Notes under the pieces: model-generated
Seen by the model: only the letters and a program-made list of their open reading frames with translations
What the model was told of the DNA's origin: nothing
The model's database searches: none
Made by a program: the position numbers and the translations under genes
Part shown: positions 4,679-23,295 of the stretch, piece after piece
Position numbering within the stretch: position 1 is the stretch's first letter
How the letters are laid out: every line of letters begins with the position of its first letter
Virus record (IMG/VR): IMGVR_UViG_2531839454_000013
Direction: 5' to 3' (one strand)
DNA: 23,295 nucleotides
From: a virus
Taxonomy: Duplodnaviria > Heunggongvirae > Uroviricota > Caudoviricetes

Positions 4679-5173
4679 ATGGATCGAGAGTTAAAAAATC
4701 TGACGCTGAATATCAGTCAACTGGCGGCATTGTCAGGTGTACATCGCCAGACTGCTGCGGCAAGGCTGCAAAATCTACCCGTTGCAGGGGGGCATGAAAG
4801 CAACCTCAAGCTTTATCGGGTGGTTGATATTGTGTCGGCATTTCTGGCATTACCACCGCCGGTTGCAGAAGGCGAAATGGACGCGCATGAGCGCAAAGCC
4901 TGGTATCAGTCTGAACGTGAGCGTCTTAAGTTCGAACAGGAAACGGCACAACTCATTCCGGCCAGTGATGTCAGACGGGAGTTTGCCATCTGGGCAAAAG
5001 CGGTCGTGCAGGTGCTGGAGACATTACCGGATATTCTGGAACGTGACTGCGGCCTGCAGCCTGCCGCTGTGAGCCGTGTTCAGTCCATTATTGATGATCT
5101 GCGCGATCAGATAGCCCTGCGGGTGACTGAAGCAGGTGCGGATGATGAGGAGGAATTACAGCAGGAGGAGTAA
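4679..5173 (+). CDS. Terminase small subunit (lambda Nu1-like)
   Basis: Track ORF. N-terminal winged-HTH-like segment (LNISQLAALSGVHRQTAAARLQ) resembling the Nu1 N-terminus, acidic C-terminus; directly upstream of and overlapping the large subunit (TAATG). Confidence 0.7.
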   Translation: MDRELKNLTLNISQLAALSGVHRQTAAARLQNLPVAGGHESNLKLYRVVDIVSAFLALPPPVAEGEMDAHERKAWYQSERERLKFEQETAQLIPASDVRREFAIWAKAVVQVLETLPDILERDCGLQPAAVSRVQSIIDDLRDQIALRVTEAGADDEEELQQEE

Positions 5174-7275
5174 TGCTGAATCAGGAAACCGCAAAGGCAG
5201 CACGAACCGATTCAGGTTATATCCTTCGCGCACCGAGACGAATGCGGGTTGCTGATGCCGTTGCTCAGTATATGCGGGTGCCTATGGGGGCAGGGAACTC
5301 AGTCCCGTGGGATCCGCTGGTGGCACCGTATGTTATTGAGCCTATGAACTGCCTGGCCTCGCGTGAATACGACGCAGTGATATTTGTTGGTCCGGCACGA
5401 ACCGGCAAGACTATCGGCCTGATTGACGGCTGGGGGATTTACAACGTGATTTGCGATCCTGCGGATATGCTGATCATTCAGATGACGGAGGAAAAAGCCC
5501 GCGAACACTCCAAAAAACGACTTGCCAGAACGTTTCGCGTCAGCCCGGAAGTGGTCAGTCGCCTGAGTCCGAACAAAAATGACAACAACGTTTATGACAG
5601 AACATTCCTTGCTGGCAACTACCTGAAAATCGGCTGGCCGTCAGTCAATATCATGTCCTCATCAGATTATAAATGCGTGGCGCTGACGGATTATGACCGT
5701 TTTCCGGAAGATATTGATGGCGAGGGGGATGCCTTCTCTCTTGCCTCAAAACGTACCACCACATTTATGTCCAGTGGTATGACGCTGGTGGAGAGTTCCC
5801 CCGGCAGGGATGTGAAGGATGTGAAATGGCGACGGACTTCACCGCATGAGGCTCCACCAACCACGGGGATACTGTCACTCTATAACCGTGGCGATCGCCG
5901 TCGCTGGTACTGGCCCTGCCCACACTGTGGTGAGTATTTTCAGCCCTGCGGCGATGTGGTTGCTGGTTTCCGTGATATTGCCGATCCTGTGCTGGCAAGT
6001 GAGGCGGCTTATATTCAGTGTCCTTCCTGTTCAGGACGGATTTTGCCTGAACAAAAACGTGAGCTGAACGGACGTGGGGTCTGGTTGCGGGATGGTGAAT
6101 CCATCAATGCGGATGGCAGTCGTTATGGTGATCCCCGACGCTCACGTATTGCGTCATTCTGGATGGAGGGTCCGGCAGCTGCTTACCAGACACTCTCGCA
6201 ACTCGTTTACAAACTGCTTACTGCAGAACAGGAATACGAGACAACCGGAAGTGAAGAAACACTCAAGACGGTTATCAATACCGACTGGGGATTACCTTAT
6301 CTTCCCCGTGCCAGCATGGAGCAACGAAAAAGTGAACTGCTTGAGCAGCGGGCAGAGCCAGTTCCTTCCCGCAGTGTGCCGGATGGCGTTAATTTCCTGG
6401 TGGCGACAGTTGATGTGCAGGCGGGACGTCATCGCCGTTTTGTGGTTCAGGTAACGGGCTATGGCAGCCGTGGCGAACGCTGGATTATTGATCGTTACAA
6501 CATCACGCAGTCATTGCGCGGTGACAGCGACGGGGAGAGCCAGCGAATTGATCCGGCCAGCTATCCGGAAGACTGGGATGTCCTGCTGACGGATGTTTTT
6601 CATAAAAGCTGGCCGCTGGCCTCCGATCCTTCTCAACAAATGCGACTGATGGCAATGGCGGTGGACTCCGGCGGTGAAGACGGGGTCACTGATAATGCCT
6701 ATAAATTCTGGCGTCGTTGCCGTCGTGATGGCCTTGGTAAACGTATTTACCTGTTTAAGGGCGACAGCATCCGGCGCGCAAAACTGATCAGCCGTACATT
6801 CCCTGATAACACCGGACGAACGGGCCGACGGGCGCAGGCCGCAGGTGATGTGCCGCTCTGGCTTCTTCAGACGGATGCCCTGAAAGACCGGGTGAATAAC
6901 GCGTTATGGCGTGACTCGCCAGGTCCAGGCTATGTGCATTTCCCTGACTGGCTGGGGAGCTGGTTTTACGACGAACTGACGTATGAAGAGCGGAGCAGTG
7001 ACGGGAAATGGAGTAAGCCGGGTCGCGGTGCCAACGAAGCTTTTGACCTGATGGTGTATGCCGAGGCTCTGGTCATTCTGCATGGATACGAAAAGATCCG
7101 CTGGCCGGATGCACCGGAGTGGGCGAGCCGGGAAACCTGGCTGGAGTGTGTCCCGGACAGTACCGAACCGTCACCCACACCGGAACCGGTATCCACGCCT
7201 GTTAAAAAACAAAAACGGAAGAAAACAGTAACTGACGATGTTAACCCCTGGCTGACTTCCGGAGGATGGTTATGA
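5173..7275 (+). CDS. Terminase large subunit (lambda gpA family)
   Basis: 700-aa track ORF with Walker A-like GPARTGKT and the gpA-family WYWPCPHCGEYF motif; position between Nu1-like and gpW-like genes. Confidence 0.85.
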   Translation: MLNQETAKAARTDSGYILRAPRRMRVADAVAQYMRVPMGAGNSVPWDPLVAPYVIEPMNCLASREYDAVIFVGPARTGKTIGLIDGWGIYNVICDPADMLIIQMTEEKAREHSKKRLARTFRVSPEVVSRLSPNKNDNNVYDRTFLAGNYLKIGWPSVNIMSSSDYKCVALTDYDRFPEDIDGEGDAFSLASKRTTTFMSSGMTLVESSPGRDVKDVKWRRTSPHEAPPTTGILSLYNRGDRRRWYWPCPHCGEYFQPCGDVVAGFRDIADPVLASEAAYIQCPSCSGRILPEQKRELNGRGVWLRDGESINADGSRYGDPRRSRIASFWMEGPAAAYQTLSQLVYKLLTAEQEYETTGSEETLKTVINTDWGLPYLPRASMEQRKSELLEQRAEPVPSRSVPDGVNFLVATVDVQAGRHRRFVVQVTGYGSRGERWIIDRYNITQSLRGDSDGESQRIDPASYPEDWDVLLTDVFHKSWPLASDPSQQMRLMAMAVDSGGEDGVTDNAYKFWRRCRRDGLGKRIYLFKGDSIRRAKLISRTFPDNTGRTGRRAQAAGDVPLWLLQTDALKDRVNNALWRDSPGPGYVHFPDWLGSWFYDELTYEERSSDGKWSKPGRGANEAFDLMVYAEALVILHGYEKIRWPDAPEWASRETWLECVPDSTEPSPTPEPVSTPVKKQKRKKTVTDDVNPWLTSGGWL

Positions 7276-7484
7276 ACCAGAATGATATTGAAGCCATGAT
7301 TCAGCGTTATACGGAAGCTGAAATGGCGGTGCTGGACGGAAAATCCGTCACCTTTAATGGTCAGCAGATGACCATGGAAAACTTATCTGAGATCCGGCAG
7401 GGACGGCAGGAGTGGGAGCGCCGCCTTGCGGCTCTGATTACACGACGACGGGGGCATCCCGGGTACCGGCTGGCGAGGTTCTGA
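7272..7484 (+). CDS. W: Head-tail joining protein gpW-like
   Basis: About 70 aa; C-terminal RRRGHPGYRLARF resembles lambda gpW from memory. RBS GGAGGA precedes the ATG at 7272 (track gives 7266). Confidence 0.65.
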   Translation: MNQNDIEAMIQRYTEAEMAVLDGKSVTFNGQQMTMENLSEIRQGRQEWERRLAALITRRRGHPGYRLARF

Positions 7485-8992
7485 TGGCAATTCTTGATGA
7501 TGTGATTGGCGTTTTTTCACCAGGATGGAAAGCGGCAAGGCTGCGTTCCCGTGCGGTGATCCAGGCTTATGAGGCCGTAAAAACGACGCGGACACATAAA
7601 GCCCGACGGGAGAGCCGAACTGCCGACCAGTTAAGCCAGTACGGGGCCGTGTCGTTACGTGAGCAGGCCCGTTACCTTGATAACAACCACGATCTGGTCA
7701 TTGGTGTATTTGACAAGCTGGAAGAACGGGTGGTGGGGAAAAACGGGATTATTGTCGAGCCACATCCGGTATTACGCAATGGGGCCATTGCCCGTGATCT
7801 GGCAGCGGAGATTCGCACCCGATGGAGTGAATGGTCTGTCAGTCCGGAGGTCACCGGGCAGTTTACCCGTCCGATGCTGGAACGTCTGATGCTGCGTACC
7901 TGGCTGCGCGATGGTGAGGTGTTTGCCCAGATGGTTTCCGGGCGCATAAACAGCCTGACGCCTTCTGCCGGTGTTCATTTCTGGCTGGAGGCGCTCGAGC
8001 CGGACTTTATTCCCATGACCAGTGATGAGAGCAACAGGCTGAATCAGGGCGTGTTTGTTGATGACTGGGGGCGTCCCGAAAAATATCTGGTGTATAAAAG
8101 CCGTCCCGTATCCGGGCGGCAGATGGAAACCAAAGAAGTGGATGCAGAGCGAATGCTGCATCTTAAATTTGTTCGCCGTCTGCACCAGATGCGCGGGACG
8201 TCTTTGTTGTCCGGTGTGCTGATCCGCCTCAGTGCCCTGAAAGAGTATGAAGATTCTGAGCTGACTGCAGCAAGGATCGCAGCTGCTCTGGGGATGTACA
8301 TCCGGAAAGGCGACGGGCAGAGCTATGAACCGGATGGTAATGGCAGCAAGGAGAATGAACGCGAGCTTACCATTCAGCCAGGCATTATTTACGACGATCT
8401 GAAACCCGGCGAAGAAATCGGAATGGTGAAGTCGGATCGTCCCAATCCTAACCTTGAAACTTTTCGTAATGGTCAGTTGCGTGCCGTGGCTGCGGGCAGT
8501 CGTCTGAGTTTTTCCAGTACGGCACGAAACTATAACGGCACTTACAGCGCCCAGCGTCAGGAGCTGGTTGAATCTACTGATGGCTACCTGATCCTGCAGG
8601 ACTGGTTTATTGGTGCCGTCACCCGCCCGATGTACCGTGCCTGGCTGAAACAGGCTGTGGCATCCGGTGTTATCAGGTTACCCCGCGATCTTGACCGTTC
8701 TTCATTGTATACCGCGGTGTATTCCGGACCAGTGATGCCGTGGATTGACCCTGTTAAGGAGGCTGAGGCCTGGAAAATTCAGATTCGTGGTGGAGCGGCG
8801 ACAGAATCAGACTGGGTACGTGCAGGTGGTCGTAATCCGGATGATGTCAAACGTCGGCGCAAGGCCGAAATTGATGAAAACCGCAAGCTGGATCTGGTAT
8901 TTGATACCGATCCGGCCAGTGATAAAGGAGGCAGCAGTGTCGCAACGAAACGACAGGAGCCGCAGCACACCGACGACCAGTCCGAAGAATAA
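7484..8992 (+). CDS. Portal protein (lambda gpB family)
   Basis: ATG at 7484 overlaps the gpW stop (in-frame internal start of track ORF 7412..8992); about 500 aa; position after terminase and gpW. Confidence 0.8.
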   Translation: MAILDDVIGVFSPGWKAARLRSRAVIQAYEAVKTTRTHKARRESRTADQLSQYGAVSLREQARYLDNNHDLVIGVFDKLEERVVGKNGIIVEPHPVLRNGAIARDLAAEIRTRWSEWSVSPEVTGQFTRPMLERLMLRTWLRDGEVFAQMVSGRINSLTPSAGVHFWLEALEPDFIPMTSDESNRLNQGVFVDDWGRPEKYLVYKSRPVSGRQMETKEVDAERMLHLKFVRRLHQMRGTSLLSGVLIRLSALKEYEDSELTAARIAAALGMYIRKGDGQSYEPDGNGSKENERELTIQPGIIYDDLKPGEEIGMVKSDRPNPNLETFRNGQLRAVAAGSRLSFSSTARNYNGTYSAQRQELVESTDGYLILQDWFIGAVTRPMYRAWLKQAVASGVIRLPRDLDRSSLYTAVYSGPVMPWIDPVKEAEAWKIQIRGGAATESDWVRAGGRNPDDVKRRRKAEIDENRKLDLVFDTDPASDKGGSSVATKRQEPQHTDDQSEE

Positions 8993-10964
8993 TTCCTGGT
9001 TCAGGATGCAGGCTGGTCACCAGAGTGACGCGGATATTTATATTTATGACGAGATTGGTTTCTGGGGTGTTACAGCAAAGCAGTTTATCAGTGATCTGAA
9101 TGCACTGGGCGGTATCACCCACATTAATCTCCATATTAATTCACCGGGTGGCGATGTCTTTGAAGGCATCGCCATTTTTAATGCACTGAAAACACATGGT
9201 GCGTCCATTACCGTTTATGTCGACGGTGTGGCGGCGTCAATGGCGTCGGTCATTGCGATGGTGGGAAACCCGGTCATTATGCCGGAAAACTCCTTCATGA
9301 TGATTCATAAACCATTTGGCTTTACGGGCGGTGATGCGGAGGACATGCGCACCTATGCCGACCTGCTCGATAAAGTTGAGGCGGTTCTGTTACCCGCTTA
9401 TGCACAGAAAACCGGGAAAACCACCGATGAAATTGCTGCCATGCTGGCGGATGAGACCTGGATGTCCGGTGCCGAATGTCTGGCACAGGGATTTGCTGAT
9501 CAGGTGACACCAGCCGTTAAGGCAATGGCATGTATTCAGTCAAAACGTACAGAGGAATTTAAAAAGATGCCGGAATCCATTCGAAACATGATTACTCCGC
9601 CACGCAACAGTGCTCCACGCGTACAGGATGATGAACCTGCAGCCTCCCGGACGCCAGTGCAGGCAGCAGCACCCGTGGTGGATGAAAACAGTATCCGTGC
9701 GCAGGTACTGGCAGAGCAAAAAGCGCGTGTAAACGGTATTAATGATCTGTTTGCCATGTTTGGCGGGCGTTATCAGACGCTGCAGGCCCAGTGTCTTGCC
9801 GATCCTGAATGTTCGCTGGAGCAGGCCCGTGAAAAGCTGTTGAACGAGATGGGGCGCGAGTCCACGCCATCCAATAAAAATACCCCGGCTCATATTTATG
9901 CCGGTAACGGTAATTTTGTGGGGGACGGGATCCGCCAGGCGCTGATGGCGCGTGCCGGATTTGAAAAAACCGAACGTGATAATGTCTACAACGGGATGAC
10001 CCTGCGTGAATATGCCCGTATGTCACTAACTGAACGGGGTATTGGGGTTTCCGGTTATAACCCGATGCAGATGGTCGGTGCGGCGTTCACACACAGTACG
10101 TCTGACTTCGGTAATATTCTGCTGGATGTTGCGAACAAAGCCATTCTGCAGGGCTGGGAAGATGCCCCTGAAACCTATGAACAGTGGACGCGGAAAGGTC
10201 AGTTGTCTGATTTTAAAATTGCCCATCGTGTGGGTATGGGGGGCTTCAGTGCTCTGCGTCAGGTGCGTGAAGGGGCGGAATATAAATACGTCACCACCGG
10301 AGATAAACAGGCCACTATTGCACTGGCGACCTATGGCGAGCTGTTCAGTATCACCCGTCAGGCCATTATCAATGATGATCTGAATATGCTGACCGATGTC
10401 CCGATGAAACTGGGCCGTGCGGCGAAATCCACTATTGCCGATCTGGTTTATGCCATTCTGACGTCTAACCCGAAAATCTCCACAGATAATGTAAGTCTGT
10501 TCGATAAAGCGAAACATGCAAACGTACTGGAGAGCGCTGCAATGGACGTGGCATCGCTGGATAAAGCCCGCCAGTTGATGCGCGTTCAGAAAGAGGGGGA
10601 GCGTCATCTGAATATTCGTCCTGCGTTCGTACTGGTACCGACGGCGATGGAGTCTGTTGCTAACCAGGTCATTCGCTCCTCAAGTGTCAAGGGGGCTGAC
10701 ATTAACGCCGGTATTATTAACCCGGTGAAAGATTTTGCGACCGTTATTGCAGAGCCTCGTCTTGATGATAACAGCCAGACCACCTTCTACCTGGCTGCGT
10801 CAAAAGGCTCCGATACGATTGAAGTGGCTTATCTCAACGGTGTGGATACGCCATATATTGATCAGATGGAGGGCTTCAGTGTGGATGGCGTGACAACGAA
10901 AGTGCGTATTGACGCCGGTGTCGCGCCAGTTGATCACCGCGGTCTGGTGAAATGTACGGCGTAA
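8937..10964 (+). CDS. Fused prohead protease (ClpP/S14-like), scaffold region and major capsid protein in one ORF
   Basis: N-terminal ClpP-like segment (DIYIYDEIGFWGV...INSPGGDVFEGIAIFNALK...VDGVAASMASVIAM), central helical scaffold-like region, C-terminal capsid-like domain of about 350 aa. Likely GTG start at 8937 with RBS AAGGAGG, about 56 nt inside the portal 3' end; alternative ATG at 9006 (track ORF starts 8745). Confidence 0.75.
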   Translation: MSQRNDRSRSTPTTSPKNNSWFRMQAGHQSDADIYIYDEIGFWGVTAKQFISDLNALGGITHINLHINSPGGDVFEGIAIFNALKTHGASITVYVDGVAASMASVIAMVGNPVIMPENSFMMIHKPFGFTGGDAEDMRTYADLLDKVEAVLLPAYAQKTGKTTDEIAAMLADETWMSGAECLAQGFADQVTPAVKAMACIQSKRTEEFKKMPESIRNMITPPRNSAPRVQDDEPAASRTPVQAAAPVVDENSIRAQVLAEQKARVNGINDLFAMFGGRYQTLQAQCLADPECSLEQAREKLLNEMGRESTPSNKNTPAHIYAGNGNFVGDGIRQALMARAGFEKTERDNVYNGMTLREYARMSLTERGIGVSGYNPMQMVGAAFTHSTSDFGNILLDVANKAILQGWEDAPETYEQWTRKGQLSDFKIAHRVGMGGFSALRQVREGAEYKYVTTGDKQATIALATYGELFSITRQAIINDDLNMLTDVPMKLGRAAKSTIADLVYAILTSNPKISTDNVSLFDKAKHANVLESAAMDVASLDKARQLMRVQKEGERHLNIRPAFVLVPTAMESVANQVIRSSSVKGADINAGIINPVKDFATVIAEPRLDDNSQTTFYLAASKGSDTIEVAYLNGVDTPYIDQMEGFSVDGVTTKVRIDAGVAPVDHRGLVKCTA

Positions 10965-12630: not shown

Positions 12631-12639
12631 GGAGGTGGA

Positions 12640-13379
12640 ATGACCACACCAAATCCACTGGCAAAACGAAAGGTGCGGGACGACGTTCTGGATGTAACCG
12701 GCAAGGCGATGCGTTTGCGAACCCTTTATCGGACACTGACTGGCTGCGTCTTGCGATGGTGAAGGATCTGCAACCTGGCGAAATGACCGCTGATGCAGAA
12801 GATGACACTTATCTCGATGATGAAGATGCAGACTGGAAAACGACAACCCAGGGGCAGAAATCCGTTGGTGATACTTCGGCGACGCTGGCCTGGCGTCCGG
12901 GTGACAGCGGGCAGAAAAAACTGGTTCAGTTGTTCGACTCCGGTGAAGTCTGCGCGTTTCGTATCAAATATCCCAACGGCACTGTTGATGTTTTCCGTGG
13001 CTGGCTGAGCTCACTGGGTAAAACCATTGCCTCAAAAGACGTGATGACCCGCACAGTGAAAATCAGCGGTGTGGGGCGTCCGTATCTGGCAGAGGAAGGC
13101 ACTGAAACCGTGAGCGTTACCGGGCTGACAGTATCACCGGCGTCTGCCAGTGTAAAAGTGGGAGCAACCACCACGCTGACCTTTACAGTAAAACCTGACG
13201 GAGCCAGTGACAAAGCGATCAGTGTGCATTCGTCAGATCCACAGACTGCCACGGTTACCCTGAACGGACTTGTGGCCACGGTAAAAGGCGTGAAGCAGGG
13301 CAGTGTCAGCATTGTGGGCATGACCGCTGACGGGATTTTTGTGGCTGTGACTGCGGTGACTGTCAGCGCAGCAGGTTAA
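12640..13379 (+). pseudogene. V: Major tail protein V homologue with the 5' ~110 nt out of frame; intact ORF only from the internal ATG at 12756
   Basis: Strong RBS AAGGAGGTGG plus ATG at 12640 opens a frame (MTTPNPLAK...) that stops after about 40 codons. gpV-like blocks appear in three different frames (KGAG; TTFWM; GDAFANPLSD..) before the long ORF 12756..13379, which matches lambda gpV including the C-terminal Ig-like domain. Could be genuine disruption or local sequence error. Confidence 0.5.
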
Positions 13380-13399
13380 CAGGACGATACTCATCATTT

Positions 13400-13423
13400 G
13401 CCCCGGTTATTCGGGGCTTTTTT
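13400..13423 (+). terminator. Rho-independent terminator between V and G
   Basis: CCCCG-GTTATT-CGGGG hairpin followed by T6. Confidence 0.5.
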
Positions 13424-13436
13424 GCAGGTGGAGAAC

Positions 13437-13826
13437 ATGATGTTTCTGAAACAGGACACGTTTAATTATGAAAAACAGTCCGTGGTGCTCAGTGAGCTGT
13501 CCGGGCTGCAGAGAATTGAATATCTGGCGTTTGTTCAGCAGCGAACGGCAAAGTTTGATGCCGAAGAGGGAGAACTGCCGGAGGCTGAACGACAGATTGC
13601 TTTTCTGCGGATGGGGATGGATATCAATGCCTGGCTGGTTTCCCGCTCACTGTGGAATGCGGAACAGTCTCAGGATGTTGAGACGCTTTGCGCATCCGTT
13701 ATTACAACATGGTCGTATGATGCCCTGGGAGCGGGGGCGGAGATGGTTCTGTCGCTGAGCGGTATGGGAGCCATTGAGAATGCCGGGGATTTGGAGCATG
13801 AGGTGCTGACGCCGGAAAAGTCCTGA
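13437..13826 (+). CDS. G: Tail assembly chaperone G
   Basis: ATG at 13437 with RBS AGGTGGAG (in-frame within track ORF 13398..13826). LSELSGLQRIEYLAF resembles lambda gpG LSELSALQRIEHLAL. Confidence 0.7.
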   Translation: MMFLKQDTFNYEKQSVVLSELSGLQRIEYLAFVQQRTAKFDAEEGELPEAERQIAFLRMGMDINAWLVSRSLWNAEQSQDVETLCASVITTWSYDALGAGAEMVLSLSGMGAIENAGDLEHEVLTPEKS

Positions 13827-14164
13827 CGCGGGAAATGCAGTTTGTCATGCGGCTTGCCCGGGAGTTCCGGCGGGCAGACTGGCGGCGGATGCTGTCGGAA
13901 ATGTCGGCCACTGAGCTTGGGGAGTGGGGCGATTATTTCCGGATGCAGAGTTTCAGTGATGTGTGGATGGATGCGCAGTTTGCCTCGCTGAAGGCATTGA
14001 TCGTGAGAATGGTGTCCGGCAGCAGTGATGCTGCGGTAGCTGATTTCAGCCTTTTACCGGAAGAGAACGGGATACCGGAGCGAACGGACGAAGAACTGAT
14101 GCATCTTGGGGAAGGTATTTCCGGAGGTGTGCGTTATGGACCAGATAGCCAACCTGGTCATTGA
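13820..14164 (+). CDS. T: T portion of the G-T tail assembly chaperone, expected to be made by -1 programmed frameshift from G
   Basis: The -1 frame is open from the end of G to 14164 (track ORF 13835..14164). Candidate slippery heptamer GGAAAAG at 13814-13820, two codons before the G stop. G followed by overlapping T then tape measure is the conserved arrangement. Confidence 0.55.
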   Translation, partial: VLTREMQFVMRLAREFRRADWRRMLSEMSATELGEWGDYFRMQSFSDVWMDAQFASLKALIVRMVSGSSDAAVADFSLLPEENGIPERTDEELMHLGEGISGGVRYGPDSQPGH

Positions 14165-17100
14165 TTTGGGGATTGATGCGGCAGAGTTTAAAAATGAAAT
14201 TCCCCGTATCAAAAACCTTCTGAATGGTGCAGCCAGCGATGCAGAACGGTCTTCTGCCCGTATGCAGCGTTTTATGGAGCGTCAGACTCAGGCCGCCCGG
14301 CAGACAACGCAGGCAGCTTCTTCGGCTGCAACAGCCGCATCCGTCCATGCGCAGACGGTGGAGAAGAACGCACAGGCTCATGAACGCATGGCCCGCGAGG
14401 TGGAGAAAACCCGCCAGCGCATGGAGGCACTGAGCCAGAAAATGCGCGAGGAACAGGCGCAGGCCATGGCTCTGGCGGAGGCTCAGGATAAAGCGGCTGC
14501 TGCGTTTTATCGTCAGATTGACAGTGTGAAACAGGCCAGTGCGGGGCTGCAGGAATTACAGCGTATTCAGCAGCAGATCCGACAGGCCAGAAACAGTGGC
14601 GGGATTGGTCAGCAGGATTATCTGGCGCTGATTTCTGAGGTTACTGCGAAAACTCGTGTTCTTACACAGGCTGAGGAAGAGGCTACCCGACAGAAAGTGG
14701 CGTTTATCCGTCAGCTTAAAGAGCAGGCAACCCGCCAGAATCTTTCTTCTTCTGAGTTGCTTCGTGCTAAGGCTGCCCAGCTGGGGGTAAGCAGTGCTGC
14801 AGAAGTGTATATCCGCAAAATGGAGCAGGCAGGAAAAGCCACGCATTCGCTGGGTCTGAAAAGTGCAGCGGCCCGCCAGGAGATAGGCGTTCTGATAGGT
14901 GAACTGGCCCGCGGCAATTTAGGGGCGCTGAGGGGATCCGGGATAACGCTGGCTAACCGTGCCGGATGGATAGACACACTGATGTCACCGAAAGGCATGA
15001 TGCTTGGCGGGGTTATTGGCGGTATTGCCGCGGCCGTCTATGGTCTGGGTAAAGCCTGGTATGACGGTCAGAAGGAGGGGGAAGAATTTAACCGCCAGTT
15101 GTCGCTGACGGGGCATTATGCCGGAGTCACTGCCGGGCAGCTGTGGACGCTCAGTCGTGCTATTTCCGGGAATGGTATCACGCAACATGCTGCAGCCGGT
15201 GCGCTGGCTCAGGTGGTGGGGAGTGGTGCATTTCGTGGAAACGATATCGGTATGGTGGCGAGAGTTGCCGCACAGATGGAGCGATCGGTTGGCCAGTCGG
15301 TCAGCGATACCATAAATCAGTTTAAGCGGCTGAAGGATGATCCTGTAAATGCCGCGAAGGCTCTGGACAATGAGCTGCATTTTCTTACTGCCACTCAGCT
15401 TGAGCAGATACGCGTCCTTGGGGAGCAGGGGCGGTCCAGTGATGCTGCACGGATAGCCATGTCTGCACTGGCAGAGGAAACCGGTCGGCGTACTGCGGAT
15501 ATTGATAATAACCTCAATGCGCTTGGCAGTACGCTGAAGTATCTGTCTGATTTGTGGAGTCGTTTCTGGGATGCGGCCATGAATATTGGTCGTGAAGACT
15601 CGCTGGATGAACAGATTTCCGCTTTACAGGAGAAAGTGTCGCGGGCGAAAAGACTCCCCTGGACGGCATCATCTTCTCAGGTTGAGTACGATCAGCAGCG
15701 TCTTAACGAGCTTCAGAAGAAAAAACGCCAGAAGGATTTGCAGGATGCAAAAGAGCAGGCAGAGCAGAATTATCAGGAGCAACAGAAACGCCGTAATGCT
15801 GAAAATGCTGCACTGAACCGGATGAATGAAACGGAAGCAGCACGACATCAGCGTGAAATTGCGCGTATTAATGCCATGCAGTACGCCGATCAGGCTGTCA
15901 GGGATGCGGCGATACAACGTGAAAATGAACGTTACGAGAAAGCCCTGGCATCCGGTAAGAAAAAAACACGCGAAACCCGTAATGATGAGGCCACCCGGTT
16001 ATTGCTGCAGTACAGTCAGCAACAGGCACAGGTGGAAGGACAGATTGCTGCTGCCAGACAGTCAGCAGGCATTGCCACGGAAAGGATGACAGAAGCGCAT
16101 AAACAGCTTCTGGCTCTGCAGCAGCGCATCAGCGACCTGGACGGGAAAAAACTGACGGCAGATGAAAAGAGTGTGCTGGCCCGTAAAGATGAACTGATTC
16201 AGGCACTGACGCTGCTGGATGTAAAACAGCAGGAGCTTCAGAAACAGACGGCACTCAACGAGCTGAAGAAAAAAACAATTCAGCTGACCAGTCAACTGGC
16301 TGAAGAAGAGCGCGCTCAGCGTCAGCAACATGACCTGGATATCGCCACGGTGGGTATGGGTGATCAGCAGCGGCAGCGATATCAGGTACAACTGAGTCTT
16401 CGCCAGAAATACCAGCAACAGCTGGAGCAGTTGAGGCGGGATAGTGAGCAGAAAGGGACATATAACACGGATGACTACAGAAAGGCCGAGCAGGCGCTGA
16501 CGGAGAGCCTGAACCGACAACTGAATGAGAATCGCCGTTACTGGCAACAGCTTGAAGTTGTGCAGGGTAACTGGAAAAACGGAGTCCTGCGTGCATTTCA
16601 GAATTTTACCGTGGATGCAGATAATACGGCAGGAACAGCAGAACAGGTGTTCTCGTCAGCCTTCAGCAACATGGGAAATGGCCTGGCAACTTTTGTCACT
16701 ACCGGCAAACTCAATTTCAAATCCTTCACCTCTTCTGTGCTGTCAGATATGGCGAAAATCCTGGCGCAGGCAACCATGATGAAATCGATAAAAGGGATTG
16801 GCAGTGTACTGGGATTTGATCTCAGCAGCCTTTCCCTGAATGCCAATGGGGGGATTTATCAGTCTGCTGATTTGAGTCGTTACAGTGGCACGGTGGTTAA
16901 CCGTCCGACGTTTTTTGCTTTTGCAAAAGGCGCGGGTGTGATGGGGGAAGCGGGACCTGAAGCCATTCTGCCATTGCGTCGTGGTGCTGACGGTAAGCTG
17001 GGGGTTGTGGCGGATATTGGGGGGTCAGGTATGGCGATGTTTTCCCCGCAGTACAACATTGAGATCAATAACGATGGCACGAACGGGCAGATAGGTCCGG

Positions 17101-17201
17101 CTGCCCTGAAGGCGGTTTATGACCTCGGGAAAAAAGCGGCAGCGGACTTTATGCAACAGCAGGCCCGTGATGGTGGTCGGTTAAGTGGAGCATATCGGTA
17201 A
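14136..17201 (+). CDS. H: Tail tape measure protein (gpH-like)
   Basis: ATG at 14136 with RBS GGAGGTG (in-frame within track ORF 14106..17201); about 1020 aa, long Gln/Arg/Ala/Glu-rich helical centre, C-terminus INNDGTNGQIGPAALKAVYD matching lambda gpH. Confidence 0.85.
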   Translation: MDQIANLVIDLGIDAAEFKNEIPRIKNLLNGAASDAERSSARMQRFMERQTQAARQTTQAASSAATAASVHAQTVEKNAQAHERMAREVEKTRQRMEALSQKMREEQAQAMALAEAQDKAAAAFYRQIDSVKQASAGLQELQRIQQQIRQARNSGGIGQQDYLALISEVTAKTRVLTQAEEEATRQKVAFIRQLKEQATRQNLSSSELLRAKAAQLGVSSAAEVYIRKMEQAGKATHSLGLKSAAARQEIGVLIGELARGNLGALRGSGITLANRAGWIDTLMSPKGMMLGGVIGGIAAAVYGLGKAWYDGQKEGEEFNRQLSLTGHYAGVTAGQLWTLSRAISGNGITQHAAAGALAQVVGSGAFRGNDIGMVARVAAQMERSVGQSVSDTINQFKRLKDDPVNAAKALDNELHFLTATQLEQIRVLGEQGRSSDAARIAMSALAEETGRRTADIDNNLNALGSTLKYLSDLWSRFWDAAMNIGREDSLDEQISALQEKVSRAKRLPWTASSSQVEYDQQRLNELQKKKRQKDLQDAKEQAEQNYQEQQKRRNAENAALNRMNETEAARHQREIARINAMQYADQAVRDAAIQRENERYEKALASGKKKTRETRNDEATRLLLQYSQQQAQVEGQIAAARQSAGIATERMTEAHKQLLALQQRISDLDGKKLTADEKSVLARKDELIQALTLLDVKQQELQKQTALNELKKKTIQLTSQLAEEERAQRQQHDLDIATVGMGDQQRQRYQVQLSLRQKYQQQLEQLRRDSEQKGTYNTDDYRKAEQALTESLNRQLNENRRYWQQLEVVQGNWKNGVLRAFQNFTVDADNTAGTAEQVFSSAFSNMGNGLATFVTTGKLNFKSFTSSVLSDMAKILAQATMMKSIKGIGSVLGFDLSSLSLNANGGIYQSADLSRYSGTVVNRPTFFAFAKGAGVMGEAGPEAILPLRRGADGKLGVVADIGGSGMAMFSPQYNIEINNDGTNGQIGPAALKAVYDLGKKAAADFMQQQARDGGRLSGAYR

Positions 17202-17530
17202 TGGAGACGTTTCACTGGAAAGTGCGCCCGGATATGAATGTGGTATCAGAGCCGAAAGTGGTGACAGTGAAGCTGGGCGATGGTTATGAACAGCGTCGTG
17301 CGGCGGGACTGAATAACCAGTTGTCGATTTACAGCGTGACGATACGTGTTCGTAAATGTGAACACCCATCTTTAAAAGCCTTTCTGGAACGGCACGGTGG
17401 CGTCCGCGCATTTCAGTGGACGCCACCTTATGACTGGAAACCGATCAGGGTGGTTTGTCGTAAATGGTCGGCAAGCGTGGGGGCGCTGTGGGTAACCATA
17501 ACGGCAGATTTTGAACAGGTCGTGGCATAG
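17201..17530 (+). CDS. M: Minor tail protein M
   Basis: Track ORF of 109 aa, clearly similar to lambda gpM (FxWKV.P.M.V.S.P.V..V..GDGY.QR..AGLN..L..YSVT; GG...F.WTPPY.W..I.V.C.KWS; FEQVV); start overlaps the H stop (TAATG). Confidence 0.85.
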   Translation: METFHWKVRPDMNVVSEPKVVTVKLGDGYEQRRAAGLNNQLSIYSVTIRVRKCEHPSLKAFLERHGGVRAFQWTPPYDWKPIRVVCRKWSASVGALWVTITADFEQVVA

Positions 17531-17539
17531 GAGGCCCTG

Positions 17540-18226
17540 ATGCAGGATATTTCACAGGAAACACATCATGAGACGACACGCCTCACTCAGTCAGCCCAGG
17601 TGGTGCTCTGGGAAATCGATCTGACAGTGGTCGGTGGTGAACGTTATTTTTTCTGTAATGAGCAGAACGATAAAGGTGAGCCGGTCACCTGGCAGGGGCG
17701 ACAGTATCAGGCGTATCCCATTCAGGGGACGGGATTTGAACTGAACGGCAAAGGCAGTGCTGCCCGTCCGACACTGACGGTTTCTAACCTGCACGGCATG
17801 GTCACCGGGATGGCGGAAGACCTGCAGAGTCTGGTCGGAGGAACGGTGGTCCGGCGTAAGGTTTACGCCCGTTTTCTGGATGCGGTGAACTTCGTCAACG
17901 GAAACAGGACGCCGATCCGGAGCAGGAGGTGATCAGCCGCTGGCGCATGAGCAGTGCAGGAACTGAGCGCGGTAGTGCCTCTTTTGTACTGTCCACGCCG
18001 ACGAAACGGAGGGCGTTTTTCCGGGACGTATCATGCTGGCCAACACCTGCACCTGGACCTATCGCGGTGAGAGTGCGGTTATAGCGGTCCGGCGTCGCGG
18101 ATGAATATGACCAGCCGACGTCCGATATCACGAAGGATAAATGCAGCAAATGCCTGAGGGCTGTAAGTTTCGCAATAACGTCGGCAACTTTGGCGGCTTC
18201 CTTTCCATTAACAAACTTTCGCAGTA
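17540..18226 (+). pseudogene. L: Minor tail protein L homologue, frame-disrupted after about codon 130
   Basis: First 130 codons are near-identical to lambda gpL, then the frame ends early (NGNRTPIRSRR*). Remaining gpL-like peptides are present but in shifted frames (DPEQEVISRWR; SASFVLSTPT; GRIMLANTCTWTYRG; VADEYDQPTSDITKDKCSKCL), needing at least 4 frame changes to reach the native stop at 18224-18226. Confidence 0.6.
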
Positions 18227-18231
18227 ATCCC

Positions 18232-18969
18232 ATGACAGAGACAGAATCAGCGATTCTGGCGCACGCCCGGCGATGTGCGCCAGCGGAGTCGTGCGGCTTC
18301 GTGGTGAGAACGCCGGAGGGGGAAAGATATTTTCCCTGCGTGAATATCTCCGGTGAGCCGGAGGCGTATTTCCGGATGTCGCCGGAGGACTGGCTGCAGG
18401 CAGAAATGCAGGGTGAGATTGTGGCGCTGGTCCACAGCCACCCCGGTGGTCTGCCCTGGCTGAGTGAGGCCGACCGGCGGCTGCAGGTGCAGAGTGATTT
18501 GCCGTGGTGGCTGGTCTGCCGGGGGGCGATTCATAAATTCCGCTGTGTGCCGCATCTCACCGGGCGGCGCTTTGAGCACGGGGTGACGGACTGTTACACG
18601 CTGTTCCGGGAGCTTACCATCTGGCGGGGATTGAGATGCCGGATTTTCATCGCGGGGATGACTGGTGGCGTAACGGTCAGAATCTCTATCTGGATAATCT
18701 GGAGGCCACAGGGCTGTATCAGGTGCCGTTGTCATCAGCACAACCGGGCGATGTGCTGCTGTGCTGTTTTGGTTCATCGGTGCCGAATCATGCCGCCATT
18801 TACTGGGGACGGCGAGCTGCTGCACCATATTCCTGAACAACTGAGCAAACGAGAGAGGTATACCGACAAATGGCAGCGACGCACACACTCCCTCTGGCGT
18901 CACCGGGCATGGCCGCATCTGCCTTTACGGGGATTTACAACGATTTGGCCGCCGCATCGACTCGTGTGA
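18232..18969 (+). pseudogene. K: Tail assembly protein K homologue (JAB/MPN HSHPGG motif plus NlpC/P60-like region), frame-disrupted
   Basis: N-terminal ~130 codons intact and lambda-like, then the frame shifts near 18610-18640. The next conserved block (MPDFHRGDDWWRNGQNLYLDNLEATGLYQVPLS..QPGDVLLCCFGSSVPNHAAIY) is in another frame (track ORF 18636..18836), and the C-terminal block (GDGELLHHIPEQLSKRERYTDKWQRRTHSLWRHRAW) is back in the first frame. Confidence 0.6.
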
Positions 18970-19478
18970 AAACGGGGGCGAAGCCATCCGGGCGCTGGCC
19001 ACAGTCCCGGCGTTTCGTCAGAACTGAGCGACGGCTGGTATCAGGTACGCATTGCCGGGCGTGATCAGAACGGATTTCGCCCGTCTTAATGACCGCTGGC
19101 AAATGGTGCTGTGATCATATGTCCGGTCGCGGGGCCAAGTGGGGGTTTCAGTTGTGCTGGGGGCGGCCGCTATTGCGGTTCTTAGGGAGACCCTTGCGCT
19201 GGGGGGAGCCATTGGCGTGTATACGGCATCTGTTTTCTCTCGGTGCCAGTATGTGCTGGGGTGTGGCCAGATGCTGGCACCGAAAGCCAGAACCCCCGAC
19301 ACAGACAACGGATAACGGCAAACAGAACACCTATTTCTCCTCACTGGATAACATGGTTGCCCAGGGCAATGTTCTGCCGTTCTGTACGGTGAAATGCGCG
19401 TGGGGTCCGGTGGTTTCTCAGGAGATCAGCACGGCAGACGAAGGGGATGGTGGTCAGGTTGTGGTGATTGGTCGCTGA
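18870..19478 (+). pseudogene. I: Tail assembly protein I homologue, frame-disrupted
   Basis: Starts MAATHTLPLASPGMA as in lambda gpI, then leaves the frame within a few codons. The conserved C-terminal half (TTDNGKQNTYFSSLDNMVAQGNVLP ... VVSQEISTADEGDGGQVVVIGR) is in track ORF 19089..19478; intervening gpI-like peptides are scattered across frames. Confidence 0.6.
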
Positions 19479-19497
19479 TGAAAATGTTTTATGTGAA

Positions 19498-19516
19498 ACC
19501 GCCTGCGGGCGGTTTT
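19498..19516 (+). terminator. Hairpin with short T-run between I and J (weak terminator or attenuator)
   Basis: ACCGCC-TGCG-GGCGGT followed by TTTT. Confidence 0.35.
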
Positions 19517-19537
19517 GTCGTTTATGGAGCGTGAGGA

Positions 19538-22500
19538 ATGGGTAAAGGAGCAGTAAGGGGCATACCCCGCGCGAAGCGAAGGACAACCTGAAGTCCACGC
19601 AGTGCTGAGTGTGATCGATGCCATCAGCGAAGGGCCGTTGAAGGTCCGGTGGATGGATTAAAAAGCGTGCTGCTGAACAGTACGCCGGTGCTGGACATGA
19701 GGGGAATACCAACATCTCCGGGTCACGGTGGTGTTCCGGGCGGTGAGCAGGAGCAGACCCGCCGGAGGGATTTGAATCCTCCGGCTCCGAGACGGTGTGG
19801 GTACGGAAGTGAAATAGACACGCCGATCACCCGCCCATCACGTCGGCAAACATCGACCGCTGCGCTTTACCTTCGGGTGCAGGCACTGGTGGAAACCACC
19901 TCAAAGGGGGACGGAATCCGTCGGAAGTCGCCTGCTGGTTCAGATCAGCGTAAGGTGGCTGGGTGACGGAAAAAGACATCACCATTAAGGGCAAAACCAC
20001 CTCGCAGTATCTGGCCTCGGTGGTGGTGGATAACCTGCCGCCGCGCCCGTTAATATCCGGATGCGCAGATGACGCCGGACAGCACCACAGACCAGCTGCA
20101 GAACAAAACGCTCTGGTCGTCATACACCGAAATCATCGATGTGAAACAGTGCTACCCGAACACGGCACTGGTCGGCGTGCAGGTGGACTCGGACAGTTCG
20201 GCAGCCAGCAGGTGAGCCGTAATTATCATCTCGCGGGCGATTCTGCAGGTGCCGTCGAACTATAACCCGCAGACGCGGCAATACAGCGGTATCTGGGACG
20301 GAACGTTTAACCGCATACAGCAACAACATGGCCTGGTGTCTGTGGGATATGCTGACCCATCCGCGCTACGGCATGGGGAAACGTCTTGGTGCGGCGATGT
20401 GGAAAATGGGCGCTGTATGTCATCGGCCAGATGCGACCAGTCGGTGCCGGACGGCTTTGGCGGCACGGAGCCCGCATCACCTGTAATGCGTACCTGACCA
20501 CACAGCGCAAGGCGTGGGATGTGCTCAGTGATTTCTGCTCGGCGATGCGCTGTATGCCGGTATGGAACGGGCAGACGCTGACGTTCGTGCAGGACCGACC
20601 TCGATAAGGTGTGGACCTATAACCGCAGTAATGTGGTGATGCCGGATGATGGCGCGCCGTTCCGCTACAGCTTCAGCGCCCTGAAGGACCGCCATAATGC
20701 CGTTGAGGTGAACTGGATTGACCCGAATAACGGCTGGGAGACGGCGACAGAGCTTGTGGAGGACACGCAGGCCATTGCCCGTTACGGTCGTAACGTCACG
20801 AAGATGGATGCTTTTGGCTGTACCAGCCGGGGGCAGGCACACCGAGCCGGGCTGTGGCTGATTAAAACGGAACTGCTGGAAACGCAGACCGTGGACTTCA
20901 GCGTGGGTGCGGAAGGGCTTCGCCATGTACCGGGCGATGTCATTGAAATCTGCGATGATGACTATGCGGGTATCAGCACCGGTGGTCGCGTGCTGGCGGT
21001 GAACAGCCAGACCCGGACGCTGACGCTCGACCGTGAAATCACGCTGCCATCCTCCGGCACCACGCTGATAAGCCTGGTTGACGGTGAGGGTAATCCGGTC
21101 AGCGTGGAGGTCCAGTCCGTCACCGACGGCGTGAAGGTGAAAGTGAGCCGTGTTCCTGACGGCGTTGCTGAATACAGCGTTGGGGGCTGAAGTGCCGACG
21201 TTGCGCCAGCGCCTGTTCCGCTGCGTGAGTATCCGTGAGAACGACGACGGCACGTATGCCATCACGCCGTGCAGCATGTACCGGAAAAGAGGCCATCGTG
21301 GATAACGGGGCGCACTTTGACGGCGACCAGAGCGGCACGGTAATGGTGTCACGCCGCCAGCGTGCAGCACCTGACGCGAAGTCACCGCAGACAGCGGGGA
21401 ATACAGGTGCTGGCCGCTGGGACACGCCGAAGGTGGTGAAGGGGTGAGCTTTGCTTCGCCTGACCGTCAGCGGAGACGGCAGTGAGCGGCTGGTCAGCAC
21501 GGCCCGGACGACGAAACCACATACCGCTTCAGCACTGGCGCTGGGGCGTTACAGCTGACGGTCCGGGCGGTAAATGCGTGGGGCAGCAGGGCGATCCGGC
21601 ATCGGTATCGTTCCGGATTGCCGCACCGGCAGCGCCGTCGCAGATTGAGCTGACACCCGGGTATTTTCAGATAACCGCCACGCCGCATCTTGCGGTTTAT
21701 GATCCGACGGTACAGTTTGAGTTCTGGTTCTCGGAAAAGCGGATTGCGGATATCAGGCAGGTTGAAACCAGCGCGCGTTATCTTGGTACGGCGCTGTACT
21801 GGATAGCCGCCAGTATCAATATCAGGCCGGGCCATGATTATTATTTTTACGTTCGCAGTGTGAATACCGTTGGCAAATCGGCATTCGTGGAGGCTGTTGG
21901 TCGGCCGAGTGATGATGCTTCCGGCTATCTGGATTTTTTCAAAGGCGAGATAGGGAAAAGCCATCTGGCTCAGGAGTTGTGGACGCAGATTGATAACGGT
22001 CAGCTTGCGCCTGACCTGGCTGAAATCAGGACGTCCATTACGGATGTCAGCAATGAAATCACACAGACCGTCAATAAGAAACTGGAAGATCAGAGTGCAG
22101 CGATCCAGCAGATACAGAAGGTTCAGGTTGATACAAATAATAACCTGAACAGCATGTGGGCTGTGAAGCTGCAGCAGATGCAGGACGGACGCCTTTATAT
22201 CGCGGGTATCGGTGCCGGTATTGAGAATACGCCTGCAGGAATGCAGAGTCAGGTGCTGCTGGCGGCAGACAGGATTGCGATGATTAATCCTGCAAATGGC
22301 AACACAAAACCGATGTTTGTTGGTCAGGGTGATCAGATATTCATGAATGAAGTGTTCCTGAAATATCTGACGGCTCCCACCATTACCAGCGGCGGTAATC
22401 CTCCTGCATTTTCCCTGACACCGGACGGAAAGCTGACCGCTAAAAATGCAGATATCAGTGGCAGTGTGAATGCGAACTCCGGGACGCTCAACAACGTTAC

Positions 22501-22966
22501 GATAAATGAGAACTGTCAGATTAAAGGGAAACTGTCAGCCAACCAGATTGAAGGCGATATTGTCAAAACAGTGGGTAAGGCTTTCCCGCGGGACTCCCGG
22601 GCACCGGAGCGGTGGCCATCAGGGACCATTACCGTCAGGATTTATGACGATCAGCCGTTTGACCGGCAGATTGTTATTCCGGCGGTGGCATTCAGCGGTG
22701 CTAAACATGAGAGAGAGCATACTGATATTTACTCCTCATGCCGCCTGATAGTGAAGAAAAATGGTGCTGAAATTTATAACCGTACCGCGCTGGATAATAC
22801 GCTGATTTACAGTGGTGTTATTGATATGCCAGCTGGTCACGGCCACATGACGCTGGAGTTTTCGGTGTCAGCATGGCTGGTAAATGACTGGTATCCCACA
22901 GCAAGTATCAGCGATTTGCTGGTTGTGGTGATGAAGAAAGCCACCGCAGGCATCAGTATCAGCTGA
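19538..22966 (+). pseudogene. J: Tail tip / host specificity protein J homologue; N-terminal ~2 kb fragmented by frame disruptions, C-terminal 494 codons (21482..22966) intact
   Basis: ATG at 19538 with RBS GAGGA begins MGKG... but stops after 17 codons. J-like peptides then appear across all three frames (track ORFs 19649..19966, 19963..20265, 20249..20497, 20386..20607, 20609..21190, 21235..21447). From 21482 to 22966 a single frame is intact and J-like, with a divergent last ~150 residues. Confidence 0.6.
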
Positions 22967-22985
22967 ATTTTATAACCCATATACG

Positions 22986-23009
22986 GGCGCCAGAAATGGC
23001 GCCTTTTTT
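22986..23009 (+). terminator. Rho-independent terminator after J
   Basis: GGCGCC-AGAAAT-GGCGCC perfect hairpin followed by T6. Confidence 0.65.
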
Positions 23010-23112
23010 ATTGCAGAAAAGCGAGAGGTGTAACCGGCTCATTTAAACCGTCTGGTCTGTTTCCTCCGGCTCTACAAAAATAATGTCCATCATTTTTAAT
23101 GGACACTATCGT

Positions 23113-23295
23113 ATGAAACACCGGACCTGGATCACTGAAGCTTTACGTCTTCACTTTGAAGAACATTTACCCCGGGTTGTGGCCGGGCGTCGCCTGGGTG
23201 TACCAAAATCAACAGTTTGTAGTATGTTCGTGCGCTTTCGGAGAGCTGGCCTTTCGTGGCCTTTGCCCGCAGGCATGTCGGAGCAGGAACTTGAT
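23113..23295 (+). CDS. N-terminal part of an HTH protein, probably an insertion-sequence transposase; 3' end beyond the window
   Basis: ATG at 23113, frame open to the window end. MKHRTWITEALRLHFEEHLPRVVAGRRLGVPKSTVCSMFVRFRRAGLSWPLPAGMSEQELD shows a helix-turn-helix followed by a GLxxPLP segment typical of IS transposase N-termini. Preceded by an inverted repeat ATGTCCAT-N8-ATGGACA (23083-23105). IS family not assigned. Confidence 0.4.
   Translation, partial: MKHRTWITEALRLHFEEHLPRVVAGRRLGVPKSTVCSMFVRFRRAGLSWPLPAGMSEQELD

Follow-up and report, generated by a model that had tools for sequence, protein, structure and literature searches.

The closest described relatives of this locus are the lambda-like gpM-gpL-gpK-gpI-gpJ tail modules carried by prophages of E. 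coli 504838 and 025542-1 and by phages PhiR55_1, 21, and cdtI. A genuinely defective member of the same family, with the same genomic neighbourhood, is the prophage of ETEC E1779 (NZ_LR883006.1), which is annotated with disrupted genes; its lesions are discrete (an ISCro1 insertion into the terminase gene and a single internal stop codon within U), without dozens of 1-bp deletions restricted to an intra-genomic repeat. A precedent of a different kind is the collapsed or co-assembled repeat, a class of mis-assembly described in 'Genome assembly forensics' (PMC2397507), in which differences between near-identical repeat copies accumulate in the co-assembled reads.

The stretch of DNA analysed here (the window, 23,295 bp) is the entire WGS contig AQCY01000085.1 of ETEC strain BCE034_MS14 (reads SRR446830), whose draft genome was built with Celera Assembler from paired HiSeq2000 100-bp Illumina reads; SPAdes was also used by the authors of the draft. 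The contig belongs to an unfinished assembly made by an error-prone method (short reads, overlap-layout-consensus) and has one end inside an IS66 element. Its tail genes follow the identical order, M-L-K-I-J, collinear with the annotated modules, and share about 93–97% nucleotide identity with them, gaps included. Unlike those modules, none of the L, K, I, and J genes in the record is a single open reading frame (ORF), a difference that we attribute to the assembly and not to the phage; the frame disruptions are very probably a consensus artefact of draft short-read assembly rather than mutations in the bacterium.

Tail-tip genes and their flanks

The terminase (5173–7275, 700 aa), portal, ClpP/capsid fusion, tape measure, and M genes are each one long ORF in the ORF list, as the initial annotation had described. 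The last two (14136–17530, plus strand) form an intact upstream flank without indels, with the tape measure gene (14136–17201) coding for 1021 aa and M (17201–17530) for 109 aa; the exact tape measure protein occurs on this contig only, and the M product is present on at least 1000 contigs.

Base-by-base alignment of window positions 1–21952 to the closest complete genome, E. coli 504838 (copy L002), gives 96 indel events, comprising 94 deletions (78 of 1 bp, 12 of 2 bp, two of 3 bp, and two of 4 bp) and two insertions. The main damaged zone lies at 17908–21584 (plus strand) and holds 91 of the 96 events (89 deletions and both insertions relative to the intact homologues); it runs from the 3' half of L through the whole of K and I and into J, of which it covers the first ~60%, and about 107–111 bases are absent from it in total. 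Apart from a short zone at 12639–12705, described below, the alignment to E. coli 504838 has no indels in the remaining ~17 kb, and the flanks at 12706–17907 and 21585–23029 have none. The earlier description of shattered tail-tip genes between whole neighbours is thus borne out, with just short fragments in the ORF list from 17540 to ~21580; the start of the damage near 17.9 kb stands, but its end is at 21584 and not at 21480.

All four damaged genes are on the plus strand. Gene L (Phage_tail_L, 17540–18226) is intact to 17907 and then has ten indel events with 12 bases missing, and K (18232–18969), which codes for a JAB and NlpC/P60 peptidase, has four frame-shifting deletions. The tail assembly gene I (18909–19478) is the most scrambled stretch, with 16 indel events, 40 bases missing, 7 extra bases, and a cluster of odd substitutions at 19066–19260; it is also the stretch in which the reference copies diverge most, with 73 variable columns in one 250-column bin. 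The tip attachment and host specificity gene J (19538–22966) has 44 frame-shifting deletions, all of them before 21585. The last 494 codons of J had been taken to be intact, but the first ~34 codons of the ORF at 21482–22966 are out-of-frame read-through, so about 460 codons are truly undisturbed.

Once the gaps are filled, all four genes are restored and read through without an internal stop, and the amino-acid identity of the L, K, and J products is ~99%. Gap-filled L matches WP_001724602.1, from one of two paralogous copies taken from strain 025542-1 (L005), at 231 of 233 positions (stop included), with PF05100 matched over its full length; K matches at 244 of 248 positions, again with no internal stops, and J at 1150 of 1160, with all six J-specific Pfam domains present. 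As in the lambda-like modules, the gap-filled L, K, and I products give full-length matches to Phage_tail_L, to Prok-JAB and NLPC_P60, and to Lambda_tail_I, respectively, and that of J to the FNIII-A_GpJ, Phage-tail_3, Ig_J, Ig_J_second, Phage_Tail_Tip, and Ig_GpJ_C set. Outside the scrambled part of I (19066–19260) a single isolated substitution is private to the window.

These products bear on the proposal that the window holds a defective prophage in the course of losing its adsorption apparatus, by ~90 real small deletions in the chromosomal L, K, I, and J genes. Defective lambdoid prophages are common, bacterial pseudogenes show a deletion bias, an IS66-family element lies just downstream of J, and a related prophage (L014) carries an IS within the terminase gene and a stop codon inside U. 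However, the real lesions of that relative amount to one IS and one stop codon, a pattern unlike 90 one-base deletions crowded into 3.7 kb and absent from 17 kb of adjacent genes, and the deletions in the window are accompanied by no nonsense and almost no private substitutions, whereas decay would bring nonsense, missense, and private substitutions at a similar or greater rate. We regard genuine decay as very improbable.

A second, small damaged zone lies at the start of the major tail gene V (12639–12705, plus strand) and did not feature in the initial annotation. It contains five one-base deletions, one just upstream of the ATG and four in the coding sequence, and the called V product is therefore a 207-aa 3' fragment (12756–13379). 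Four of these deletions fall exactly at sites that separate the L010-type V allele from the type in L002 and L004, and the fifth is inside a G-run adjoining an L010-variant site.

Positions of the deleted bases

The deletions were compared with the sites that differ, inside the damaged zone, between two paralogous copies of strain 025542-1 (L004 and L005), copies of related strains and of phages serving as surrogates for those of BCE034_MS14 itself. The window has gaps at 55 of the 191 columns at which L004 and L005 vary, as against 51 of the 3592 at which the two agree (odds ratio 28, Fisher p 1.1e-45), and intact copies from eight other genomes, taken as controls, have 0–3 gaps at the same 191 sites. 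Of the 107 deleted columns, 75 vary within a panel of ten references (against a background of 13.7%), and 92.5% are no more than one column from a panel-variable site (background 34%); 31 of the 107 are invariant in the panel, and most of these adjoin a variable column. Third codon positions account for 63 of the 107 deleted bases (59%), mirroring the polymorphism spectrum (363 of 515). The errors thus coincide with differences between copies, in a manner beyond random mutation, whereas lesions of decay would be indifferent to polymorphism and codon position.

The same positions speak to the possibility that the sequence here is of low quality by chance, through low coverage or chemistry errors such as homopolymer slippage or an error-prone library polymerase. 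Nearly all of the events are 1–2 bp deletions, a spectrum that resembles some platform error profiles. The data, however, are Illumina HiSeq 100-bp reads, for which errors are mainly substitutions, and a sister study from the same centre had an average depth over 200x. Nor do the deletions favour homopolymers: in 68% of the 1-bp deletions the lost base had no identical neighbour, compared with 57% expected from the sequence, and the deleted bases lay in runs whose lengths match the background distribution or fall short of it. Random placement was tested and is not the case, and coincidence with polymorphic sites and third codon positions is unexpected from chemistry; chance errors of this kind are an extremely unlikely source of the damage. 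The initial annotation was right that the indels are mainly single-base deletions (78 of the 94 deletions), but the association with short homopolymers that it reported does not hold. Its suggestion of error-prone polymerase activity, with -1 deletions in short runs, is contradicted by the lack of homopolymer enrichment and by the preference for third codon positions, a bias expected from no polymerase-level or read-chemistry error.

The interleaving of L004 and L005 alleles along the window (41–42 switches) was considered as proof of read mixing and was dropped, since eight genuine copies show 2–70 switches, with 48–70 in five of the eight. Only the gaps at variant sites are abnormal in the window.

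Copy number and origin of the disruptions

Megablast was run on 5,426 complete E. coli genomes and on 50,697 phage records; segment 18900–20500 is found at 15,949 places in 4,508 of the 5,426 complete genomes, with a median of three per genome. The nearest relative, 504838, has four places for this segment, and strain 025542-1 has nine for a longer query (17200–23295); these multi-copy counts were made in relatives of BCE034_MS14. Of the 15,949 complete-genome copies, the one most similar to the damaged stretch is 93.4% identical to it. The same damage was not found among the complete E. coli genomes, among the phage records (by megablast), or by exact protein look-ups, in which each of the fragments of L, K, and J looked up was confined to exactly one contig among about 15 billion proteins. 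The lesions are private to one assembly, and L, K, I, and J are intact in the nearest relatives, 504838 and 025542-1. Decay would predict lesions shared with related strains, but no complete genome shares any; there is no intermediate or common lesion in the 15,949 related copies, and the fragments are singletons in public protein data. Having neither point-mutation decay nor a relative with any of the lesions to support it, the erasure of the adsorption apparatus is not upheld.

The other of the two readings offered at the outset, neither of which was preferred there, a localised consensus error from a repeat common to lambdoid prophages, is strongly supported by deletions that lie at paralog-variant sites, are private to one Celera draft contig, and leave no stop after gap filling. 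The L-K-I-J module, together with a short stretch at the start of V, would be present as several 93–97% identical copies in different lambdoid prophages of one genome, and we infer that reads of at least two copies were brought together in one contig. Wherever these reads disagreed, the consensus step may have either chosen one allele or output no base, the latter giving an apparent deletion of 1–4 bp. Where the copies are too different, as at the receptor-binding end of J, or the sequence is unique, as in the tape measure and head genes, reads would have been placed correctly and the consensus would be clean. Candidates for the base-dropping step are competing alleles held in separate gapped alignment columns, or read 'correction'. 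Raised depth and mixed alleles over the damaged zone are predicted by the artefact reading. Besides the 31 deleted columns that are invariant in the panel, two further points count against it. A plain majority vote over two equally covered alleles should call an allele and not a gap, and the M and tape measure region has no damage, although it differs between the surrogates about as little as the damaged zone does; the repeats of BCE034_MS14 must have boundaries other than those seen in the surrogates.

The window is like the collapsed repeats described previously (PMC2397507) in that related genomes carry several copies of the module, the errors fall only within it at sites where copies differ, the contig ends in other repeats, and the assembly is a short-read overlap-layout-consensus draft. 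Such repeats classically present as mixed bases in the pile-up and a wrong copy number, whereas the symptom in the window is dropped consensus bases. Heterogeneous samples are also a recognised source of correlated differences (PMC2397507), and a mixed template, with two variants of the same prophage in the DNA (from a mixed culture or from within-culture recombinants) and a consensus failing at their differences, would likewise be expected to leave deletions at variant sites. A mixed culture should hit other variable loci on the contig too, but the effect stays within 70 bp of V and one module of which single genomes are known to carry several copies, and the unique head and tape measure genes are clean. 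We therefore consider a mixed template very unlikely as the explanation. It is scarcely credible that the deletions are real events in the cell, in which an unknown repair process acting on heteroduplexes from inter-prophage recombination would excise single mismatched bases without refilling them; if true, 1-bp deletions at paralog-variant sites would be an undescribed mutational footprint of inter-prophage gene conversion.

Deposited proteins and contig ends

The biological significance of the disruptions is small, and their practical value is as a warning. Five GenBank proteins derived from the contig (EMV24698.1, EMV24703.1, EMV24704.1, EMV24708.1, and EMV24711.1) very probably carry artefactual truncations, and such fragments would add singleton 'families' to protein databases. 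Taken at face value, the truncations would be scored as a defective prophage or entered as pseudogenes in counts. The initial annotation concluded that no functional tail tip could come from the prophage as written; this holds for the record but tells nothing about the organism. For other draft genomes, the placement of indels at paralog-variant and third-codon sites provides a cheap, read-free test of artefact against real decay.

Both ends of AQCY01000085.1 lie in other repeats, a phage methyltransferase gene at the 5' end and the IS66 element at the 3' end. The latter is the left end of an IS66-family (ISCro1-like) element (23030–23295, plus strand) that begins 63 bp past the J stop codon and within which the contig ends; homology to lambdoid prophages ends at 23029. 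Extra deletions in this end of the element were considered and rejected, the difference between 292 and 295 bases being alignment slop at the IS/prophage junction; the end is clean and matches the IS copy in L014 at 265 of 266 positions.

Provenance and gene content of the contig

Exact look-up of the tape measure protein identifies the window as the entire 23,295-bp contig AQCY01000085.1 of assembly GCA_000354335.2, and its protein fragments have GenBank accessions from 'Escherichia coli BCE034_MS-14'. BCE034_MS14 (AQCY00000000, reads SRR446830; PMC5469772, Sahl et al. 2017, supplementary table) is an ST173, CFA/I strain from Bangladesh marked as sequenced in that study (PMC5469772), for which 100-bp Illumina HiSeq 2000 reads and Celera Assembler were used (PMC5469772, methods).

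The window holds the late region of a lambdoid-type prophage. Gene calls include a DNA methyltransferase fragment, four tRNA genes (1131–1441; ARAGORN) upstream of the lysis genes, and those for terminase, portal, a ClpP-protease/capsid fusion, head-tail joining, tail, tape measure, M, L, K, I and J. The tRNA anticodons are CAT, TCT (Arg), TGT (Thr) and TCC (Gly); the CAT tRNA is assigned to Met by ARAGORN and annotated as tRNA-Ile by RefSeq at the identical position in relatives. Each gene from terminase through M is one ORF, and from 17540 on the homologues of L, K, I and J can be followed only in short pieces whose frame keeps changing. An IS66-family (ISCro1-like) element begins 63 bp past the J stop codon, at the place of lom in related prophages; its left end (23030–23295, 266 bp) forms the 3' end of the contig. 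A contig end inside a multi-copy IS is consistent with a short-read break at a repeat. Provided that this junction is real, J is cut off by the IS from lom and the side tail fibre genes in BCE034_MS14.

Two zones of frame disruption

Alignment of window 1–21952 to the closest complete genome, E. coli 504838 (98.7% identity), gives 96 indel events, comprising two insertions and 94 deletions (78 of 1 bp, 12 of 2 bp, 2 of 3 bp and 2 of 4 bp). Ninety-one events lie inside 17908–21584, a tail-tip zone that covers the 3' half of L, K, I and the first ~60% of J and lacks about 107–111 bases in all; five lie inside 12639–12705, where the major tail gene V begins, and there are none elsewhere in 1–21952; this clustering far exceeds chance. 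The initial annotation's report of disrupted tail-tip frames beside intact flanking genes is thus confirmed; the zone ends at 21584, however, leaving about 460 intact J codons and not the 494 first counted. Its placing of many deletions in short homopolymers does not hold, as 68% of the 1-bp deletions removed a base without an identical neighbour, against 57% expected. The V zone, five 1-bp deletions missing from its list, reduces the called V product to a 207-aa 3' fragment (12756–13379).

When the reference base is put in each gap, L, K, I and J have no internal stop codons, every expected domain is matched full length, and the products agree with those of the paralogous module in strain 025542-1 at 231/233 (L), 244/248 (K), 167/201 (I) and 1150/1160 (J) positions. 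The scrambled stretch of I, ~200 bp at 19066–19260, is where the reference copies differ most; outside it there is one isolated private substitution, and a few others adjoin a deletion. The related degraded prophage of ETEC E1779 (NZ_LR883006.1), in contrast, has ISCro1 (6733–9454) splitting its terminase gene and one internal stop in U (14420–14821, annotated as a pseudogene) and lacks the dozens of one-base deletions of the window; its decay looks genuine.

The tail-tip module is a repeat in related genomes. Among 5,426 complete E. coli genomes, 4,508 carry segment 18900–20500, at 15,949 places in total (median 3 per genome, maximum 16) and at four in 504838; a longer query (17200–23295) finds nine in 025542-1. 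None of the 15,949 copies resembles the damaged version (best identity 93.4%, nearly all records 90–95%), so that the lesions are confined to this one record. By exact look-up among ~15 billion proteins the L, K and J fragments are on exactly one contig each, and the intact M protein on at least 1000.

Deletions at sites that differ between copies

Strain 025542-1 (Bangladesh) carries both an orthologous prophage (L004) and a paralogous tail-tip module (L005), with L, K, I and J intact in each. The two copies differ at 191 aligned sites inside the damaged zone. There the window is gapped at 55, agrees with L005 at 62 and with L004 at 61, and matches neither at 13; beyond the zone it agrees with L005 at 197 of 200 differing sites. 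Of the 191 variant columns 55 are deleted, as against 51 of the 3592 invariant ones (odds ratio 28, Fisher p 1.1e-45). A panel of ten references was also compared, drawn from complete-genome prophage copies (four), phage records (four) and further prophages (two). It is variable at 75 of the 107 deleted columns (background 13.7%), and 92.5% of these 107 are at most one column away from a variable site (background 34%). Third codon positions account for 63 of 107 deleted bases, a spectrum similar to the natural polymorphism of the module (363/515). Neither mutation nor sequencing chemistry can know codon phase or where other copies differ, whereas a consensus of reads from several copies can follow both.

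The V zone carries the same signature, with four of its five deletions coinciding with differences in a third V allele (L010) and the fifth in a G-run beside such a difference.

Switching between L004 and L005 alleles (41–42 times over 3.7 kb) was considered as proof of read mixing and dropped, since the module is naturally reticulate: eight genuine copies from other genomes switch 2–70 times, five of them 48–70 times. Only the gaps are abnormal, with 53 at these sites in the window versus 0–3 in genuine copies. Across window 17901–21590, the polymorphisms of genuine L-K-I-J copies form a highly reticulate pattern of sharing, which indicates that lambdoid tail-tip modules are mosaic at a very fine scale or undergo recurrent gene conversion.

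Origin of the disruption

The frame disruption is almost certainly a property of the database record and not of the organism, and the tail-tip damage is not novel biology. Between the two origins initially put forward, localised consensus error is strongly favoured by the site-specific deletions, the private lesions, the contig provenance, the lack of other decay and the multi-copy status of the module in relatives, and a decaying prophage is highly improbable given that site-specificity, the missing substitutions and the missing shared lesions. Random platform error is more improbable still, as Illumina is an ill-fitting platform for it, the deletions have no homopolymer bias, and they are site-specific. 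A mixed template should leave an identical signature but should not stay within an intra-genomic repeat, and is as improbable as decay. A process in the cell that removes mismatched bases from heteroduplexes formed by prophage copies has no known precedent and is the least probable of these.

For the consensus error, we propose that reads of at least two prophage copies were merged into a single contig wherever the copies are alike enough for reads to overlap, and that consensus calling or read correction then sometimes left out the base at positions of disagreement. That near-identical repeats go with misplaced reads, and with differences gathered at copy-specific sites, is a general pattern (PMC2397507). 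A plain majority vote between two alleles should call one of them rather than leave a gap. Clean sequence resumes ~250 bp ahead of the point at which the surrogate copies, taken from related strains and phages, become strongly divergent at the 3' end of J, which would fit reads or mates becoming placeable again.

Artefactual fragments from 17540–22966 are deposited in GenBank as ordinary proteins (EMV24703.1, EMV24704.1, EMV24708.1 and EMV24711.1), under the names 'phage minor tail protein L' (130 aa), 'hypothetical protein' (245 aa), 'phage tail family protein' (193 aa) and 'fibronectin type III family protein' (462 aa), and are one-contig sequences in public protein collections. The truncated V protein EMV24698.1 (12756–13379) has a second GenBank accession, KDV13713.1, and is counted on two contigs; its cluster is represented by a Logan-derived 207-aa protein. 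The defect may thus be present in a sister assembly too, which would point to a pipeline-wide artefact.
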